A stretch of DNA of 11,025 bases from Candidatus Thorarchaeota archaeon (GTDB lineage Archaea > Asgardarchaeota > Thorarchaeia > Thorarchaeales > Thorarchaeaceae). This document shows positions 3,175-11,025 of the stretch, piece after piece. Below the pieces are notes generated by a model. It made no database searches. It worked only from the letters and a program-made list of their open reading frames with translations, and was not told where the DNA came from. The position numbers and the translations under genes are program-made. The stretch spans positions 1 through 11,025 of the forward strand of contig JBHLRP010000079.1 in assembly GCA_048882485.1 (NCBI GenBank), written 5' to 3'. Numbering within the stretch: the stretch's first letter is position 1; each line of letters starts with the position of its first letter.

Positions 3175-4695
3175 ATGACAGAACTTATTCTTGCTATTGA
3201 TGCCGGGACCACTGGCGTCCGCTCTATGTTCTTTAAGCCCACAGGTGAGGTGGTCGCTAGGGCGTATGAGGAGTTTGAGAATCACTTTCCGAAGCCCTCT
3301 TGGGTTGAGCAAGAGGCATCCGATTGGTGGACATCCACATGCAATACGATATCTGCTTGCTTCAAATCGGACCTAGCAAAGGCTGAACAAGTTGTCGGTG
3401 TTAGTGTGACTAATCAGCGTGAAACCGTGGTTCCAATTGCTAAGAATGGTGCCGCGTTGAGAAAGGCAATTGTTTGGCAAGACCGTCGCACAGTTCCAGA
3501 GTGCGAATGGATAAAGAGCCAGATCTCAGAGGATGAGATCTATTCCATAACAGGGCTCACCGTGGATCCTTATTTCACAGCACCTAAGATACTTTGGGTC
3601 AAGAGGAACCAGCCTGAGGTCTTTGAAAAGACTCACAAGTTCTTGTTGGTGCATGACTACCTTGTCTACAAACTCACTGGCTTGACAATCACTGATCACT
3701 CTAATGCAAGCAGGACCCTGCTCTTTGATGTTTCCAAGGGTACTTGGTCTGGAACAATGCTTGATTGTCTAGGCATACCAAAGGATAAACTCCCTGATCC
3801 CATTGGTTCTGGAATCAAGGTTGGAGAAATTAGTGAGCAAGCTTCGAAAGAGTCTGGACTTATCCCGGGCACTCCAGTTGTAGCTGGTGGGGGAGACCAG
3901 CAATGTGCTGCTCTGGGTGTGGGAGTGGTACGTCCAGGCTCATTCAAATCGACTACAGGCACTGGCACGTTCATGCTTGCATTCTCTGACACTCTGAAAC
4001 TTGATTCCCAGCGCAGAGTTCTCTGCAGTAGACACGTGGTGCCTGATGCATTTGTTGTAGAGGCATCAATGTTCACCACAGGCTCAGCACTACGCTGGTT
4101 TCGTGACCAGCTTGGAAGTGTGGAGATTGCAGCCGCCGAGGAACAGGGAATGGATCCTTATGAAGTAATAACTGAGGGTGCAGGGCAGATTCCTGCTGGC
4201 TCTGAAGGTGTCCTTCACATTCCTCACTTCGTGGGCGCAGGAGCACCATATTGGAATCCGCATGCAAGAGGGGTCTTTGCAGGACTCGCTCTCGGACACA
4301 CACGACATCATCTAATGCGTGCAATCCTTGAAGGAGTCTGCTACGAGATACGAACCAATCTAGAAGTGATGTGGGAATTGGGGCTCTCTGTCAATGAAGT
4401 TCGTGTCACAGGAGGCGCAGCTAGGAGTGAGACTTGGATGCAGATACAGGCTGATGTCCTCAACATTCCTGTAATTCGAACGAAAATGGAGGAGTCCACC
4501 GCATTAGGTGCTGCAATATTGGCAGCGAAAGGAGTTGGGATATTCAAATCAGTAGTTGAAGCTGCAGAAGAAATGGTCTGTCCCATCTCACCTCTGACTC
4601 CTACTGACGAGAATAGGTCTGTTTACGATGATGGATTCGAGAGGTACAAGACCCTCTACAATTGCCTATCTGGGATTACATGGACATCAGACTAG
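3175..4695 (+). CDS. FGGY-family carbohydrate kinase (glycerol-kinase-like substrate pocket; could be auto-annotated as xylulokinase)
   Basis: DAGTTG, TNQRET, WQDRR, PYF, SNASRT, GDQQ.AA.G, K.T.GTG.F, PYW, GGAA. Start placed at ATG 3175 (MTELILAID) behind AGGGGG at 3163-3168, rather than ATG 3142. Confidence 0.9.
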   Translation: MTELILAIDAGTTGVRSMFFKPTGEVVARAYEEFENHFPKPSWVEQEASDWWTSTCNTISACFKSDLAKAEQVVGVSVTNQRETVVPIAKNGAALRKAIVWQDRRTVPECEWIKSQISEDEIYSITGLTVDPYFTAPKILWVKRNQPEVFEKTHKFLLVHDYLVYKLTGLTITDHSNASRTLLFDVSKGTWSGTMLDCLGIPKDKLPDPIGSGIKVGEISEQASKESGLIPGTPVVAGGGDQQCAALGVGVVRPGSFKSTTGTGTFMLAFSDTLKLDSQRRVLCSRHVVPDAFVVEASMFTTGSALRWFRDQLGSVEIAAAEEQGMDPYEVITEGAGQIPAGSEGVLHIPHFVGAGAPYWNPHARGVFAGLALGHTRHHLMRAILEGVCYEIRTNLEVMWELGLSVNEVRVTGGAARSETWMQIQADVLNIPVIRTKMEESTALGAAILAAKGVGIFKSVVEAAEEMVCPISPLTPTDENRSVYDDGFERYKTLYNCLSGITWTSD

Positions 4696-5978
4696 GAGGA
4701 ATAGACTGCCAGCTTATTGCCCTTATCGAGCACGAGAATCTTAGTTTTTGGATCCTCTGAAATCCATGCATCAATCACAGATTGAATATCATCCACCTTC
4801 TCTAGATGCGCAGACTGAACGGTATCCTCATCGAGAGTAGTATACATCTTTACGCCTGAAACACGATTCAGCAATTCCGCAAATTTGTAGGCCTTGTGCT
4901 CATAGAGATGATATTGTCCACTGATGGATGCGATGACATCATTAAGTGGAGCTGCGAGTTTATTATAGAAATTCTCAGTGGCCTTTGGAGGTGCAACACC
5001 ATCACGGCATTCAGCTACGAACAAGACTTCTCCACCATCAGCTACTGCGTTTTTCGTTAGCTCCAAACCTCTTTGAGCATGGTATAGGCTCTTGTCCTGT
5101 GGATAGCCTCCCGGGGACACGATAATCCTGGACACAGGATCTACCGTGAAGCTAGCAGTTTCATCTAGTACCTCAATTCCTCTAGCTATTACTGGCTCTA
5201 GTCGTCCTGCATCTGCCCAAACTAGACTCTTCCCACTTGTGATGACAGATAGTGTGAACACCTTTGCATTCTTAGTCACAATCTCCATGGCTTCTTTCAT
5301 ATCATCAGCCAAGGGATTGGTGCGCTTGGCCGGATCAGGATGATATGGATGTCTGCCAAAGGTTGAATTTGGGTCCAATGCCATCGAGTGATTAGCTTCA
5401 ATAGTCTTGAACGCACACACGCCTGGAAGGAAATTCTTCAATCCATTTGAGTAACCAGCAAAATAGTGTGCTTTCATATCTGTTAGGGACACATAGATAT
5501 CATGTTTCGTTGCGAGAGCGTTTACGACAATAGGCGTCCCTCTACTCGTGACGCCAAGATCAACAACATCTTCGCTTTGACAGTCATGTATGTGAACATC
5601 AAATTTGCTCAAGCCTCCATCACGAGCCACTCGTTGAATCATGTCTACTATCTCGAGGTTGGCAGGATGATTCACTTCATGTGACCCTGTGGTAATGATG
5701 AATTGTACATTGTTTGCATCCGTGAGTAGTGGGACGACTGCACTCACAAGTTCCCGATGTGGAGATTCTCTGGTATGGTCTTCGACAAGAACGCAGACAT
5801 TCCTACTCCGCACAAGTTCTTCAAGGTGAGGCCCGTGAGGATTTGCTAGCACACGGGCAAGCTCTGCCTCAAAATCAGATGAAGCAGCCACTTGCCTTGG
5901 AATAATCATCCCTGCAAGATTCTCATCCGGTATGTCAAACTCAATCTTGGATTCACCGTATGATAAGTCCACCTTCAT
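4692..5978 (-). CDS. larA: LarA-family nickel-pincer-nucleotide-dependent 2-hydroxy-acid racemase/epimerase (substrate uncertain)
   Basis: EDHTR, TGSH, HD, G.TSRGTP, HYFAGYS.G.K..LPG, NH, SPGGYP.D..LY, AEC.DG. Start likely ATG 5978 (MKVDLSYG) with GAGGA 7 nt upstream; ORF track starts at 5996. Confidence 0.88.
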   Translation of the reverse strand: MKVDLSYGESKIEFDIPDENLAGMIIPRQVAASSDFEAELARVLANPHGPHLEELVRSRNVCVLVEDHTRESPHRELVSAVVPLLTDANNVQFIITTGSHEVNHPANLEIVDMIQRVARDGGLSKFDVHIHDCQSEDVVDLGVTSRGTPIVVNALATKHDIYVSLTDMKAHYFAGYSNGLKNFLPGVCAFKTIEANHSMALDPNSTFGRHPYHPDPAKRTNPLADDMKEAMEIVTKNAKVFTLSVITSGKSLVWADAGRLEPVIARGIEVLDETASFTVDPVSRIIVSPGGYPQDKSLYHAQRGLELTKNAVADGGEVLFVAECRDGVAPPKATENFYNKLAAPLNDVIASISGQYHLYEHKAYKFAELLNRVSGVKMYTTLDEDTVQSAHLEKVDDIQSVIDAWISEDPKTKILVLDKGNKLAVYSS

Positions 5979-6093
5979 CCTAGTGTCCTCGTTCATCTTG
6001 GTGCCTTTGCTACAGAAAAGCGTTGACCCTGCTGCACATTGAGCTTCACCGCGTCACCAAAACTGATATCCGACTGATTTGGTTTGAAAGATT

Positions 6094-6417
6094 ATGAGCA
6101 ATTCGGATGATCAAAGGAAAACTGGCATGGCAGGAATGGGTCGCTGGTTGGCAGTAGGCTCTGAGTTGCCTTGTTCTGTGATCATCATGACATATGTTGG
6201 ATCTTTCCTAGGCACGGCCTGGTGGGGGCCTCAGGGTGCCGTGTCTGGAGGAGTCCTGGGTTCTCTAGTAGGATTTGTGCTGGGTGTCTTAAGCGTCTAT
6301 AAGACTGTGGAGTACTATGACCGCTTAGAAACTCAGAATCAGACCAGACGCACTTACATGCCGCCGCTTGAAGAAATCTACGAGGAGTTTGATCTCCCCG
6401 GAAAGGAAGATGAATAG
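6094..6417 (+). CDS. Small 2-TM membrane protein resembling the AtpZ/AtpQ (ATPase gene 1, 'AtpZ/AtpI') family
   Basis: WLAVGSELPCSVIIMTYVGSFLG..WWG...GGVLGSLVGFVLGVLSVYK follows the pattern G.El...v...G..l..w.g...G.llG...G...vy+ of this family; acidic C-terminal tail. The CDS is solid; the family call is by eye only. Confidence 0.6.
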   Translation: MSNSDDQRKTGMAGMGRWLAVGSELPCSVIIMTYVGSFLGTAWWGPQGAVSGGVLGSLVGFVLGVLSVYKTVEYYDRLETQNQTRRTYMPPLEEIYEEFDLPGKEDE

Positions 6418-6429
6418 CTAGCCACTTTT

Positions 6430-6978
6430 TCAAGTGACTTTCTCGCCTAGACTGTAGTAGTTGAAATCGCCACCGGTAGCCCAAACAAAAGTATTTGCTT
6501 TTCTCAGATTCAGTTTGCCATCGTTCAGACAATGGGGAGTGACATATGAGCCGATGACTTCACCAATAATCCCTTCATTTGGGTCGTAGTCCAAGACTTC
6601 TGTGAGTCTGCATTCCATGTTTATTGGACACTCCCGAATCATAGGGGCTGTTGAGATCTTTCCGTAGAATGTTTCGAACAACGATGACTTGTCAAAATCT
6701 CGTCCAGATTTGCTACCACATATTTTGGTTTCAGGCATTAGGTCTACTGAAGGTATATTCACGCTGAATGTTCCCTGTTCATGTATTCCAATCCTTGTGT
6801 GTCGTTTTTTGAACAAGCTGAAGAAGATGTGTTTTCCAAAATTGAAGGGGGCTATATAGCCGATAACAAGATAGTTTGGTTTTCCATTCACCAGTGCTCC
6901 AACTAACGCCACGGGCAAAGGATTGAGAATATTACCCCTGATTTCTTGCTTCCCCAGTTTCTCAATCGATGATGCCAT
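6430..6978 (-). CDS. Flavin reductase-like / flavoredoxin family protein (FMN-binding split barrel)
   Basis: P.PVALV...NGKPN, RHT..GI...GTFSVNIP, CGSKSGR..DK, APMI.ECP.N.EC, IGEV. Start is ATG 6978 or GTG 6984; lies directly after the nitroreductase stop, suggesting an operon. Confidence 0.88.
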   Translation of the reverse strand: MASSIEKLGKQEIRGNILNPLPVALVGALVNGKPNYLVIGYIAPFNFGKHIFFSLFKKRHTRIGIHEQGTFSVNIPSVDLMPETKICGSKSGRDFDKSSLFETFYGKISTAPMIRECPINMECRLTEVLDYDPNEGIIGEVIGSYVTPHCLNDGKLNLRKANTFVWATGGDFNYYSLGEKVT

Positions 6979-6985
6979 TAGCACA

Positions 6986-7579
6986 TCAACTCAGTCTGCC
7001 CTGATCTAGGAAAGGAGTGCCATACTTCTCTGAATATACAATCTCTCCAACATCTATCCTAGGTCGTTGCCTTGGATCTTCATCCGCAAGACCCAGCGTC
7101 ACCAGCGCAATGATGTCCCCATCAGCTGGAATCGCCAATGCATCTTTTACAATCCTTGTCACCTCGTTGGGCGCAGACTGGAACATTGCAATCCAACAAC
7201 TACCATACCCAAGTGCTGTTGCTGCAAGTATTAGATGCTCAGCGGCAATCATGGTGTCCATTGCATGCCATTTTGCAGGATTATTGGGACAACACGAGGC
7301 TTCCTGCATTGCAAGTACAACCACCACTGCATTTGCTTTTGCAATGAACTTTTGTCCTCCTGCTGCCTCAGCCAGTATTTCTTTCATCACGGGTGTCCGA
7401 ACTACTATGAAGCGCCAAGGTTGGCTATTGTTTGTAGATGGAGCTAACTGTGCCGCTCTGAACATTCTTGCTATGTCATCATCCGGAATCTCGAATTCCC
7501 TGTATTTCCTAATGCTCCGCCTTTCCTCGATGACCCTGAAGAATAAATCAGCGGCTTCAACTCTTGTTTGAGCCTTCAT
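6986..7579 (-). CDS. Nitroreductase family protein (FMN-dependent)
   Basis: RRSIRKY, A..APS..NSQPWRFIVV, D..IAA.HL.LAATALGYGSCWI, LG. Start at ATG 7579 with GGAGGT RBS at 7590-7585; the ORF track start at 7612 lies inside the operator region. Confidence 0.92.
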   Translation of the reverse strand: MKAQTRVEAADLFFRVIEERRSIRKYREFEIPDDDIARMFRAAQLAPSTNNSQPWRFIVVRTPVMKEILAEAAGGQKFIAKANAVVVVLAMQEASCCPNNPAKWHAMDTMIAAEHLILAATALGYGSCWIAMFQSAPNEVTRIVKDALAIPADGDIIALVTLGLADEDPRQRPRIDVGEIVYSEKYGTPFLDQGRLS

Positions 7580-7596
7580 ATAGAACCTCCAGTTAA

Positions 7597-7642
7597 TATA
7601 TTGGATGACCAATAGAATAAGTATTGGTTGTCCAATATAAAT
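7597..7642 (-). promoter_or_regulatory. Promoter of the nitroreductase-flavin reductase operon with two palindromic operator boxes (TATTGG-N4-CCAATA)
   Basis: Box 1 is 7599-7614 TATTGGatgaCCAATA and box 2 is 7622-7637 TATTGGttgtCCAATA. A minus-strand TATA-like TTTATAT at 7641-7635 overlaps box 2. The region is locally AT-rich. Confidence 0.7.
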
Positions 7643-7716
7643 GCATGTTACAGCGCAAGAGTCACCTGGCCCAAATTCCGTTTGTGAGGAGTTTCACAGT
7701 CAGCACAATCTTTCTT

Positions 7717-8307
7717 CTATCTGAGAAACTCATCATCATCGTCTGCATCAAGTACCTCAATGATGACCTTTGTGGCACTTCTACCCACGCCAGCTATAAT
7801 AATCTGGACTAGGAGTGCAATCATGAATGCTCCAAGTGCGAAGCTGAATATTGCTAGCGAGAATGACCCTGCAGCTGTTACCCATGGGCCTACATAGTAC
7901 AGGTCCACGAGATACCACATGTAAAAACCAGTTACCGCCATCACGACAACCAATATTCCGTAGAGCATCACTACTGTCTTTACCTTCGGCGTATCAAACC
8001 TGACCTGTTCGATTCCTGGACCTACCACGGCGTTGCCAATCTTCCTAGAGAACCTCACGAATGCGCTGATTGCGGCAAGGAATAGGACGATGAAGATAAT
8101 GATGATCACTAGGAGGAGAAGCGGCTTCAACGCATCATCGAGTGTGAAGAAGAGATCTCCTATTGCGTATGCAGTGAGCGATCCTACCATCACTATGATG
8201 GCAACTATTTCTACGACAAATGTGATGGTGGCAGAGTTTCTAAAGAGGCTCCCAAGGTCGAAATACTCGTCGCGCCTCGGTACGAGATCGTCAGTTCCTT
8301 CCGTCAT
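7717..8307 (-). CDS. Hypothetical 4-TM membrane protein
   Basis: Four hydrophobic stretches in two hairpins separated by a basic loop (VRFSRKIG...KVK); acidic C-terminus DADDDDEFLR. Start guessed at ATG 8307 (MTEGTDDL, 196 aa), which leaves room for a divergent promoter. Confidence 0.7.
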   Translation of the reverse strand: MTEGTDDLVPRRDEYFDLGSLFRNSATITFVVEIVAIIVMVGSLTAYAIGDLFFTLDDALKPLLLLVIIIIFIVLFLAAISAFVRFSRKIGNAVVGPGIEQVRFDTPKVKTVVMLYGILVVVMAVTGFYMWYLVDLYYVGPWVTAAGSFSLAIFSFALGAFMIALLVQIIIAGVGRSATKVIIEVLDADDDDEFLR

Positions 8308-8380
8308 GGCGACCAACTTGATTGCACGAGCCTTCCCGGTTATTTGAATTCTTCTACTATCGTCAGTTTCCTTCCCTTCG

Positions 8381-8441
8381 TCAACCTTTATATCCCGCAT
8401 GCATTGAAAAATCGTAATCCCGCCGACCAAAAATCACGGTG
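8381..8441 (+). promoter_or_regulatory. Putative archaeal TATA box and RBS for atpC
   Basis: TTTATAT at 8387-8393 in the divergent intergenic region; GGTG at 8438-8441, 7 nt before ATG 8449. Confidence 0.45.
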
Positions 8442-8448
8442 TTTCAAA

Positions 8449-9513
8449 ATGGGCTCAAGGGCTGCGAATGAATACGGCTACATCAATGCAAGAATCAGAG
8501 GTATGAAGTCTCGATTTCTGACAGTAGGCGACTACGAACGACTTCTGCAGTCTGCAAGCTATGAGGACTTCATGAGGAATCTGGGTGGGACCTATTATGG
8601 GCCCATAATTAATGCAGAGTTTCCACGAGAGGTTCCTGACCCCGCTGACCTTGGATTAGTACTCTCCAAGGATTTCGCAGATATTAGCTATAGGCTCATT
8701 AGGTCACTCACTGGTCGTGTACGCGACTTTACTGAAACCTATCTCAATATGTTCCTAGCAGAGAGCGTCAAATCGATCCTCCGTGGACTTCATGTAGAGC
8801 TTGAACGTGACGAGATATTGAGATTTCTTGTGCCGACTTCTCCAGAACAGGCAAGCGAGTTCGAACAGATAGTTGATTCCGGCTCAGTCAAGAAAGCTAT
8901 TGACATCTTGCCCTACTGGGATGTCAAAATTGCCCTTCTTACGAAGCTTCCTACTTACGAGGAGTATGAATCTACAGCTCCTCTTGAGGTTGCAGTTGAG
9001 GAATGGTATCTTCGAACCGTCATGGACGCTCTAAAAGAATTCTCCAATGAGGATCAGAGTCGCGTTTTGGACGTTCTTGAGGCAAGAGTTGACCTCAGAA
9101 ACATCTTGACAATGATCAGAGCACTTGTTCTGCAGCTAGAGTCAAGGGTCATTGAAATGTCTCTTATACGGTTCACTAGGAAGTCGCAGGCCATAGTTGA
9201 GCTCATCAAAGTTTGCTCGACTTGGCATGAAATCTTCAACAAGATAGGTTCGACTAGATATGGTCAGCTTGCGGGAAGGCTGGCAAGGATCTACGAAGAA
9301 ACAAATGATCTCTCGGAGGTCGAGCTGGCAATCGAAGACTACATTGCAAAACGGGTGAAGCTCCAACTCACAGCTTTTCCATTCCACATTGGAACAGTGT
9401 TAGGATTCTTCAATCTCAAGTACTATGAGATTAGGAATATCCGATCCATTGCGGTAGGTATCGAAAGGGGTGAGGCCCCAGAAAATATCAGACGAATGAT
9501 TACAATATGGTGA
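8449..9513 (+). CDS. atpC: A1Ao/V-type ATP synthase subunit C (AC39 family, homolog of eukaryotic V0 subunit d)
   Basis: N-terminal YGYINARIRGMKSRFL...YERLL, VDLRNI.T.IRA, C-terminal PF.IG.VLGF..LK.YEIRNIR.IA.GIE; 354 aa from ATG 8449. Confidence 0.93.
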   Translation: MGSRAANEYGYINARIRGMKSRFLTVGDYERLLQSASYEDFMRNLGGTYYGPIINAEFPREVPDPADLGLVLSKDFADISYRLIRSLTGRVRDFTETYLNMFLAESVKSILRGLHVELERDEILRFLVPTSPEQASEFEQIVDSGSVKKAIDILPYWDVKIALLTKLPTYEEYESTAPLEVAVEEWYLRTVMDALKEFSNEDQSRVLDVLEARVDLRNILTMIRALVLQLESRVIEMSLIRFTRKSQAIVELIKVCSTWHEIFNKIGSTRYGQLAGRLARIYEETNDLSEVELAIEDYIAKRVKLQLTAFPFHIGTVLGFFNLKYYEIRNIRSIAVGIERGEAPENIRRMITIW

Positions 9514-9597
9514 CCGGAGGGCAACATTTAGAAAGAGGAGAATTACCCGAAAACGTCAGAGAATGATTACAATTTGGCAACTGGAGGACAACATTCA
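9463..9597 (+). repeat. Diverged tandem direct repeat (68 bp + 67 bp) of the atpC 3' end and downstream RBS
   Basis: Copy 1 (9463-9530) gaaaggggtgaggccccagaaaatatcagacgaatgattacaatatggtgaccggagggcaacattta; copy 2 (9531-9597) gaaagaggagaattacccgaaaacgtcaga-gaatgattacaatttggcaactggaggacaacattca. Hand alignment gives 52/68 identical with one 1-nt gap. Confidence 0.9.
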
Positions 9598-9987
9598 GTG
9601 AAAATCAATACATGGAATACCAACATATTGATGCTAGGATTGGGAGCAGTTGTATGCGCCATCTTTGCAGCAGCGTTCTATGCACCTACCCCTGTCAAGG
9701 CACTTGGTGTGCCAGGTTCTGGATTTGTGCCACTGCAAACCACTGAGGGTGCTGGTTTGGCCATTCTTGGTCTTGCAATCGGTGCAGGTCTTGCTATTGG
9801 CCTTGCGGGTATTGGCGCTTCCCTGGGTATGGGCACTGCATCTGCAGCAGCATTAGGCGCAATCACAGAGAAGCCAGAAACCTTTGGCAAGAGCATTCTC
9901 TATGTCGTGCTCATTGAGGCTGTTGCTATCTACGGTTTCGTCATTGCGTTTCTACTCATTGGGTCGATTTCGGGCCTCATTGGTTAA
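9598..9987 (+). CDS. atpK: A1Ao/V-type ATP synthase subunit K/c (single-hairpin proteolipid with N-terminal hydrophobic extension)
   Basis: GAGLAIGLAGIGASLGMG glycine stripe, EKPE loop, essential Glu in LIEAVAIYG. Start likely GTG 9598 with GGAGGA at 9583-9588; ORF track starts at TTG 9574. Confidence 0.93.
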   Translation: MKINTWNTNILMLGLGAVVCAIFAAAFYAPTPVKALGVPGSGFVPLQTTEGAGLAILGLAIGAGLAIGLAGIGASLGMGTASAAALGAITEKPETFGKSILYVVLIEAVAIYGFVIAFLLIGSISGLIG

Positions 9988-10036
9988 AAAAACAACTCTA
10001 GTAGAGGATGGATGGGAGTAACCCATTTCCTCTACT
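9986..10036. terminator. Putative bidirectional terminator between convergent atpK and atpE
   Basis: AGTAGAGGA (10000-10008) pairs perfectly with TCCTCTACT (10028-10036), with an inner GATGGG/CCCATT stem. A7 at 9986-9992 forms a U-tract on the minus strand. Confidence 0.55.
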
Positions 10037-10658
10037 CAGATCCCTTCTTTGGAAAGAGGGCGGATGCTACTCGATCCCTCAATGAGTCATCAAACCGTTC
10101 TTTTCTGGCGTCGTATGTATTATCTACTGATTTTGTGCTATCTTTGGTTCGAACAATCACTCCGCCAGTGGCTCTGATGGTGTCCTTTGAAATGCTCACG
10201 TTTGTCTTGACGCCTGTTTCTTTCGAGATTGTCTTTGCGAGCTCATCCACACCGAGGCTGACCTTTTGTCCTACAGGTAGGACTAGCTCAATGTCTGGCT
10301 CCTGAAGAGAGCCAGCACCATCGACAGCTAGGTTGAAGACAGTCTTGTCGTATTTCTTTTCGAGAACACTCTTCTGAAGGTTGTCCCACGCAGCTTCGAA
10401 AACCTCGTTCATGATTGCCTCTTTGCGTTCAAGAAGGCGGTATTTTGCCTGGAGCTTGGCACTAGCGTGGTACTTGGCAACTTCTGCATCAGTTTCGCGC
10501 TCAGCTCTTCCTGCAATCTCCTCAGTGATTTTCTTGGCACGATTCCTCGCCTTCTCAAGGCGTTGCTTCTTGAATTCCTCGGCCTCAGCGATGATTCTGT
10601 CGCACTCATTCTTGGTTTTGGAATTGATTATCTTGATGATGTTGTTGACTCCTTCCAT
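10032..10658 (-). CDS. atpE: A1Ao/V-type ATP synthase subunit E (peripheral stalk)
   Basis: MEGVNNII..I...coiled coil, then GGVIV......VDNTYDAR.E...R..VA..LF; 208 aa from ATG 10658, RBS GGAGG within the end of the upstream gene. Confidence 0.92.
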   Translation of the reverse strand: MEGVNNIIKIINSKTKNECDRIIAEAEEFKKQRLEKARNRAKKITEEIAGRAERETDAEVAKYHASAKLQAKYRLLERKEAIMNEVFEAAWDNLQKSVLEKKYDKTVFNLAVDGAGSLQEPDIELVLPVGQKVSLGVDELAKTISKETGVKTNVSISKDTIRATGGVIVRTKDSTKSVDNTYDARKERFDDSLRDRVASALFPKKGSE

Positions 10659-10662
10659 GTTA

Positions 10663-10986
10663 TCATTCCTCCCCCGTAACCACCTTATAGACAATGTCAA
10701 CGGCTTTCTTAACTTGGCCACGAGCTGAGTCCTCAATCTCTGAAATCTGCTTCTCAGTTTCTTTCTGGACCTTCTGTTCAATCTCCAATCTTCTGGCCTG
10801 GAGTCCATCTCTCGAACGCTGAGCAGCTATCTTCGCCTCCTTCTCTGCGTTCTCAATTATCTCCTTCGCTTCTTTCTCCGCGTTCTCTCGAATCTTTTTC
10901 GCGCGGGCTTCTGCTTCTTTCAGCTGCTTGTTCGCAGCTTCTTCAGCCTCATGGATTTGGTCAATCTCTTCGTGAGCAGCACTCAT
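10663..10986 (-). CDS. atpH: A1Ao ATP synthase subunit H (homolog of V-ATPase subunit G)
   Basis: About 107 aa E/K/A-rich coiled coil (I..I.EAE..A...EA...A..I...A..EA), C-terminal KAVDIVYKVV, directly upstream of atpE. ATG 10986 is preceded by GGTGAGG. Confidence 0.85.
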   Translation of the reverse strand: MSAAHEEIDQIHEAEEAANKQLKEAEARAKKIRENAEKEAKEIIENAEKEAKIAAQRSRDGLQARRLEIEQKVQKETEKQISEIEDSARGQVKKAVDIVYKVVTGEE

Positions 10987-11025
10987 TACTGCATTCCTCA
11001 CCTTTAGCAGGGTGTCGTTTTCACT

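Follow-up and report, generated by a model that had tools for sequence, protein, structure and literature searches.

Does the A/V-type rotary ATPase of Asgard archaea have a membrane helper of its own? The question is raised by an 11,025-nucleotide stretch of DNA from a Thorarchaeota genome, called the window here, in which two genes for small membrane proteins lie upstream of genes for the rotor of this enzyme. The first (6094–6417, + strand) encodes a protein of 107 aa with two transmembrane (TM) helices. The second (7717–8307, − strand) encodes a 196-aa orphan with four, and it is divergent from atpC (8449–9513, + strand), the gene for subunit C/d, the rotor socket. The eukaryotic V-ATPase depends on small 2-TM helpers, and archaeal A-type ATPases have, to our knowledge, been described as needing no accessory membrane factor. 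The original prediction, made from the DNA letters, reported both genes at these positions, as they are indeed found, and proposed that they may form a rotor-assembly system, which would matter for the origin of the V-ATPase if the host was an Asgard archaeon. By the database names of near-identical proteins, the contig belongs to Thorarchaeota, an Asgard lineage. The answer that we consider likely has two parts. The 2-TM protein would be a diverged descendant of the AtpZ/AtpQ lineage that serves as a dedicated accessory of the Asgard A/V-ATPase, and the 4-TM protein would be a separate protein that does not depend on this enzyme. The 2-TM protein is tied to the ATPase because of its transitive homology, its conserved adjacency to atpC, and its decay together with the enzyme.

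Family membership and features of the 2-TM protein

The 2-TM protein of the window aligns to the AtpZ/AtpQ family PF09527 with residues 19–70 on profile positions 5–53 of 54, at a score of 10.3 bits and an E-value of 0.76; the gathering cut-off of the family is 26.6 bits. Its orthologues were collected by whole-genome search. Two from Jordarchaeales score 33.0 bits (G042) and 29.7 bits (G052) and another scores 33.6 bits (G060), with near-whole coverage of the profile. The orthologue on a Heimdall contig is also above the cut-off (34.2 bits), and that of G037 reaches 24.7 bits. In the scanned genomes that pass the cut-off, the gene adjacent to atpC is the sole PF09527 match. Among 14 control genomes scanned for PF09527, Methanocaldococcus jannaschii and Deinococcus radiodurans also gave a signal, from which no conclusion is drawn. 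The NCBI label of the Jord and Heimdall proteins is ‘AtpZ/AtpI family protein’, and one Thor homologue is labelled ‘F0F1-type ATP synthase assembly protein I’ by JGI. These proteins were then compared with the Thor-type ones as profiles. A profile of 18 Thor-type sequences (A6) matched a profile of 12 PF09527-passing Asgard sequences (A7) in hhalign with 99.3% probability and an E-value of 8e-21 over 70 columns. For this reason, the Thor 2-TM protein is placed on a diverged branch of the PF09527 lineage: by transitive homology it is a relative of AtpZ/AtpQ, not a Pfam-level member. The AtpZ/AtpQ-like call made from the DNA therefore stands through the orthologues above the cut-off and the A6–A7 match, and fails on the protein’s own Pfam score. 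When A7 was used to search for loci beyond Asgard, only four were returned, namely two from Jordarchaeales, one from Heimdall and one labelled ‘Thermoproteota archaeon’.

The AlphaFold2 (AF2) model of the protein is a helical hairpin formed by helices 5–44 and 48–82, with a predicted local distance difference test (pLDDT) score of >90 over the hairpin, and the two-TM core of about 55 residues of the PF09527 type is present in it. Conserved features of the family include a GRW motif, an invariant glutamate where TM1 begins (S-E-L-P-C, E24) and a glycine zipper along TM2. Both ends of the protein should face the cytoplasm according to the positive-inside rule. Additionally, the Thorarchaeia proteins have a conserved acidic C-terminal tail, Y-M-P-P-x-E-E-I-x-E-E. 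Conserved acidic tails that contain phenylalanine end both the 2-TM protein (…EEIYEEFDL…, 6340–6417) and the 4-TM protein (…LDADDDDEF…, 7717–7760) of Thorarchaeia, and these tails may represent a shared short linear motif. Heimdall-type copies are fused to a C-terminal zinc ribbon, PF10571 (L050:5001-5726; L035:9325-9651, in G060), and downstream of them another small gene encodes a membrane protein that has a zinc ribbon and faintly matches PF09527.

Linkage of the 2-TM gene to atpC across Asgard archaea

A profile of the 2-TM family (A3) has a match in 50 of 61 Asgard genomes. The match shares the atpC contig in 42 of the 50 and is located no more than 5 kb from atpC in 41, no more than 1.5 kb in 35 and no more than 300 bp in 10. 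Eight matches lie off the atpC contig, and six of these are in assemblies of 260–510 contigs from the genus of the source genome. A gap of 8–28 bp, with the 2-TM gene upstream of atpC on the same strand, was observed in six genomes (G038, G049, G059, G043, G047 and G057), and in G043 the gene is embedded in the order atpI, 2-TM, atpC, atpK. Independent public contigs labelled as Odin, Hod and Heimdall display the same adjacency, as read from precomputed Pfam labels. Altogether, the 2-TM gene adjoins atpC in at least 11 GTDB families whose neighbours are otherwise different. Its linkage to ATPase genes is thus conserved across relatives, and the earlier caveat that proximity to the rotor genes may be coincidental is contradicted by this linkage together with the co-loss described below.

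In the family of the source genome, the 2-TM gene occurs in 32 of 36 genomes. ATPase subunits were mapped by tblastn onto 20 loci from relatives, and genomes of the Thor family show the sequence LarA(−), 2-TM(+), 4-TM(−), atpC(+), atpK(+), atpE(−), atpH(−), atpI(+); LarA adjoins the 2-TM gene throughout the order to which this family belongs. In other Asgard families, the mapped loci have the 2-TM gene directly upstream of atpC on the same strand, and the 4-TM gene was not found beside the cluster. In the window, the 2-TM gene starts 2.36 kb away from atpC, which agrees with the roughly 2.4 kb given originally, and about 1.2 kb of this spacing is a flavin reductase/nitroreductase pair. The pair (6430–7612) is an insert shared only by the source genome and G005; the other mapped relatives have the 2-TM and 4-TM genes side by side, 13–50 bp apart. 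Between the 4-TM gene and atpC, an insert of about 10 kb is found in G012 and a tandem 4-TM paralogue in G024.

Co-loss of the 2-TM gene with the ATPase

It is unusual for a free-living archaeon to have no A/V- or F-type ATPase at all. In the Thor family, four genomes that are 90–98% complete (G017, G021, G027 and G032) gave no match to PF00006, the catalytic subunit, or to PF01496, the family of atpI, and both are present in G036, a congener of G021. The syntenic locus is present in all four (L053 = G017:C1; L054 = G021:C7; L052 = G027:C11; L055 = G032:C61), so the absence of the ATPase is not a binning artefact. At this locus, LarA and the 4-TM gene are intact in every one of the four genomes. 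What is left of atpC is a fragment of 84 aa in G017 and a fragment with three stops in G027, and it was not found at the locus in G021 and G032. Stops, frameshifts or deletions have reduced the 2-TM gene to a remnant in G017, G027 and G032, and it is undetectable in G021.

In a tree built from LarA and the 4-TM protein, the four ATPase-less genomes are split over three positions. G021 pairs as sister with G036, which has the ATPase (support of 0.999), and G017 and G032 form a clade with a support of 1.0. The deeper nodes are weak and, consequently, the independent losses of the ATPase are counted as at least two, probably three. Since the 2-TM gene decays at each loss while both flanking genes stay under selection, it depends functionally on the ATPase. 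A link of the 2-TM protein to LarA was also considered and rejected, as LarA persists where the 2-TM gene decays.

The 4-TM protein

The second membrane protein behaves differently: it stays where the ATPase and the 2-TM gene are lost. Its gene is present in 35 of the 36 genomes of the source genome’s family. A longer frame that starts with TTG reaches position 8430, and homologues favour the ATG at 8307. The AF2 model contains four long helices with a pLDDT of 79. Neither the window protein nor any of 14 aligned homologues matched a Pfam family at an E-value of up to 1, PF03899 included. A profile of the protein recovered 23 sequences from 1.84 billion representative proteins and had no match among the PDB sequences. 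Searches with the model gave nothing at E <1 in Foldseek against the PDB and TM-scores of ≤0.38 against the ESM Atlas folds, and the highest Z from VIA-align wide was 8.1, for generic helical bundles, a value within noise for helical proteins. In a feature search of the ESM Atlas, only unnamed clusters from Thor and Promethearchaeota were retrieved. An origin by internal duplication was rejected (hhalign of the two halves, 0.5% probability), as was homology with the 2-TM protein (at most 16% probability).

The distribution of the gene does not follow the ATPase. It was not found in families f3, f4, f7, f8, f10, f15 and f18, all of which have atpC and the 2-TM gene. In G047, G048, G057 and G058, distant homologues are encoded far from atpC. 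The neighbours recorded for distant homologues are a peptidase, a radical-SAM gene or an aminotransferase, with no ATPase genes among them, and the paralogues also have unrelated neighbours. One such paralogue, a 182-aa protein with 42% identity (G000:C19:35854-36402), is flanked by a gene read by eye as an inorganic pyrophosphatase and by a gene for a 400-aa membrane protein; a second copy of this type occurs in most genomes of the family. A link of the 4-TM protein to LarA was dismissed as well, for outside the order LarA is not adjacent to it. In our judgement, the 4-TM protein is a membrane protein in its own right, restricted to Asgard; it is a passenger in a synteny block that is shared within one order (LarA, 2-TM, 4-TM, atpC), and it is not dependent on the ATPase.

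A comparison with AtpI/UncI (PF03899), the 4-TM c-ring assembly chaperone of F-type enzymes, leads in the same direction. Both proteins have four helices and are encoded beside rotor genes. However, the orphan, at 196 aa, has no detected sequence similarity to AtpI/UncI and is retained without any ATPase. It is not a PF03899 member and probably not a functional analogue of AtpI. The idea that it supplies an AtpI-like component is not supported, on four grounds: the lack of similarity to PF03899 or another family, its intactness without the ATPase, its not being found in most Asgard families that have the ATPase and the 2-TM gene, and the lack of ATPase neighbours of its distant homologues. The gene should not be annotated as ATPase-related.

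Proposed role of the 2-TM protein

How might the 2-TM protein serve the enzyme? In Asgard archaea, the AtpZ/AtpQ lineage would have become a dedicated accessory of the A/V-type rotary ATPase. An action on the membrane sector is suggested because the gene adjoins atpC-atpK and, in one family, stands between atpI and atpC. The hairpin could assemble or stabilise the rotor of c-ring and subunit C, or it could be a small subunit of AO. A hairpin with a glycine zipper would be suited to packing against the proteolipid helices, and the conserved acidic tail could extend to a partner in the cytoplasm, for instance subunit C. Physical binding and a role in assembly are what we infer from the sequence comparisons. 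A complex of atpC, three atpK hairpins and the 2-TM protein, predicted with alignments, scored 0.24 and 0.08 against a mark of 0.32 and is not used as evidence for or against. Of the rotor-assembly system that was originally envisaged, the 2-TM half survives, tied to the ATPase by homology, linkage and co-loss and with a putative assembly role; the 4-TM component does not. A bolder version, which we hold only tentatively and would not call probable, makes the 2-TM protein a dedicated, Asgard-wide membrane-sector factor that binds the c-ring/subunit C intermediate during assembly, or a small AO subunit. No earlier factor of this kind would then be on record for A-type enzymes of archaea, and in function the protein would foreshadow the small V0 proteins of the Vma21/e/f type in eukaryotes.

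Detectable homology supports a comparison with two known proteins of PF09527 (ATPase_gene1), namely AtpZ from Bacillus pseudofirmus OF4 and the AtpQ (‘gene 1’) of N-ATPase operons; they too are small 2-TM hairpins encoded in or beside a rotary ATPase cluster. AtpZ and AtpQ go with F- or N-type enzymes, whereas the Asgard protein accompanies an A/V-type one (atpC/PF01992, atpK, atpI/PF01496). The Thor protein differs from them further by its score of 10.3 bits and its extra conserved acidic tail (YMPPxEEIxEE), and the Heimdall forms differ by their zinc-ribbon fusion. AtpQ has been equated with PF09527 and described as not limited to N-ATPase operons, without being given a role (Dibrova et al. 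2010, PMC2881411). The database entry of the family is described as ‘putative F0F1-ATPase subunit Ca2+/Mg2+ transporter’. Hicks et al. are said to have linked AtpZ to Mg2+ uptake in 2003.

Several observations weigh against a dedicated accessory of the AtpZ/AtpQ lineage. The 2-TM protein of the window falls below the PF09527 cut-off in a direct comparison, so that its membership in the lineage hangs on transitive homology. The function of bacterial AtpZ/AtpQ is itself unsettled. The 2-TM gene and atpC are on different contigs in G037 and 10 kb apart in G012. In Thorarchaeia, the two genes are on the same strand and are not co-transcribed, with the opposite-strand 4-TM gene between them. Finally, A3 found no match in four Asgard genomes with atpC-like genes (G040, G041, G055 and G056); consequently, the ATPase can exist without the 2-TM protein or with a form that the profile misses.

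Alternative explanations

The arrangement of the genes invites the idea that the two membrane proteins form a joint system for rotor assembly, in the manner of AtpZ and AtpI in bacteria. In almost every genome of the family, and also in G037, which belongs to a second family, the 2-TM and 4-TM genes converge with 13–50 bp between them. In addition, the 4-TM gene and atpC have a common intergenic region, and both membrane proteins end in acidic tails with phenylalanine. Co-loss largely refutes such a system, because decay of the ATPase and of the 2-TM gene has left the 4-TM gene intact. Moreover, the 4-TM protein matches neither PF03899 nor any other ATPase family at E up to 1, stays at or below 16% in hhalign against the 2-TM family, is not found in most Asgard families with the ATPase and the 2-TM gene, and has distant homologues that adjoin peptidase, radical-SAM or aminotransferase genes. 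We regard a joint system as very improbable. The 2-TM protein might instead be a channel or uptake factor that supplies the ATPase with divalent cations (Mg2+/Ca2+) and does not assemble it, as has been proposed for AtpZ of Bacillus pseudofirmus. The description of the PF09527 lineage as a Ca2+/Mg2+ transporter speaks for it, as do the invariant E24 at the start of TM1 and the glycine zipper, which could drive oligomerisation. The fit is poorer, since a cell without the ATPase should still have a use for a general cation channel, which is not expected to decay with the enzyme, and the 2-TM gene decays at each loss; the tight operon position between atpI and atpC also indicates the membrane sector of the enzyme. 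A channel is thus an unlikely reading, to be kept in mind more than the other alternatives.

Vma21 (PF09446) and the V0 subunits e/f, which have two TM helices and either work on the membrane sector of V-type enzymes or form part of it, are another tempting comparison. The size class, the topology, the A/V-type enzyme and the Asgard host would all suit an archaeal homologue or ancestor of these proteins. However, PF09446 and PF05493 are absent among the families listed for 19 members of the 2-TM family (25 of 47 weak families), and the 2-TM profile found only generic TM matches, at E ≥0.006, and no V-ATPase chain among all PDB sequences, a set expected to contain such chains. Foldseek returned nothing at E <1 from the PDB for the 2-TM model, a two-helix hairpin being too simple for fold comparison. 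Homology is detectable instead to the bacterial-type PF09527. The similarity to Vma21 or subunits e/f that had been raised thus finds no sequence support in the Pfam listing or the PDB profile search, and common ancestry is exceedingly unlikely, even if the 2-TM protein may function in a similar manner by analogy. Equally hard to credit is the view that the 2-TM gene is unrelated to the ATPase and lies near atpC by chance. In its favour, the gene is always also beside LarA in Thorarchaeia and is separated from atpC in G012 and G037. Nevertheless, adjacency to atpC recurs in at least 11 GTDB families with differing neighbours, and LarA is kept in the ATPase-less genomes where the 2-TM gene decays. 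An ATPase accessory of the AtpZ/AtpQ lineage remains the preferred explanation for the 2-TM protein.

Organization of the ATPase cluster and the window

The source genome comprises 3.96 Mb in 157 contigs, and the window is the whole of one of them (C79). Genes were called from a listing of open reading frames and from Pfam and NCBIfam scans. Three ATPase genes exceed the Pfam gathering cut-offs for A/V-type subunits C, K and E. atpC matches PF01992 (E 1.3e-51, 176 bits) over profile positions 1–338 of 339 and also TIGR02923 AhaC (E 4.7e-42). atpK (9574–9987, + strand), for the proteolipid c subunit, matches PF00137 with residues 69–128 (E 1.4e-19, 70.6 bits). atpE (10032–10658, − strand), for the peripheral stalk subunit E, matches PF01991 (E 1.7e-19, 70.5 bits), and its orthologues align from the ATG at 10658. 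An atpH-like gene (10663–11001, − strand), for the peripheral stalk subunit H/G, matches TIGR02926 AhaH (E 1.1e-6) and PF16999 (E 6e-5), both under their cut-offs, and keeps the same position in relatives.

atpC-atpK on the + strand and atpH-atpE on the − strand form two units that converge. The remaining ATPase genes are in the same genome, with atpI on contig C30, atpF-A-B on C68 and atpD on C21, which bears out the description of the cluster as split. The last 77 nt of C79 (10949–11025) recur without a mismatch, as the reverse complement, at the end of C30. The two contigs therefore connect, which places atpI (C30:36160-38487) after atpH in divergent orientation, the arrangement also seen in relatives. 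The canonical archaeal aha/atp operon (H-I-K-E-C-F-A-B-D) contains the same families, and we know of no PF09527-like gene in it. Unlike this operon, the Thor cluster keeps C, K, E, H and I at the locus in divergent and convergent units (C-K, E-H, I), has F-A-B and D on other contigs, and includes an extra PF09527-like gene.

Upstream of the membrane protein genes, a LarA-like gene (Lar_N/LarA_C; 4692–5996, − strand) matches PF09861 (E 5e-40); it is divergent from the 2-TM gene and serves as a synteny anchor. The inserted pair consists of a flavin reductase (6430–6984, − strand) and a nitroreductase (6986–7612, − strand), identified by a scan of the pair for PF01613 / PF00881.

The proteolipid has features of its own. 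atpK begins with a hydrophobic N-terminal leader of about 60 aa (9574–9770), followed by a single hairpin with the ion-binding glutamate. In an alignment of 16 Asgard orthologues, this residue (E115) is invariant and the leader is present in nearly all; its hydrophobic segment resembles a signal peptide or an additional TM helix. In the Hodarchaeota-labelled G047, a giant proteolipid gene with a called product of 1139 aa contains at least 11 tandem PF00137-like hairpins (L036:423-5315; L049:10216-10264) and is located about 4 kb from atpC and the 2-TM gene.

Significance

In a full-text literature search, no paper was found that links PF09527/AtpZ to A/V-type ATPases or to Asgard archaea, or that links Vma21 to archaea. 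What appears to be new here is the attachment of a known family of accessory genes to a different class of rotary ATPase, with a function that is deduced from sequence. Thorarchaeota 2-TM proteins annotated as ‘hypothetical’ gain a family assignment. A 2-TM gene that accompanies atpC across Asgard lineages and is lost with the ATPase provides a concrete and testable candidate for an accessory membrane factor, and this candidate occurs in the archaeal group closest to eukaryotes. The ATPase-less Thorarchaeia, in turn, provide a natural knockout series by which true partners of the ATPase can be sorted from bystanders.

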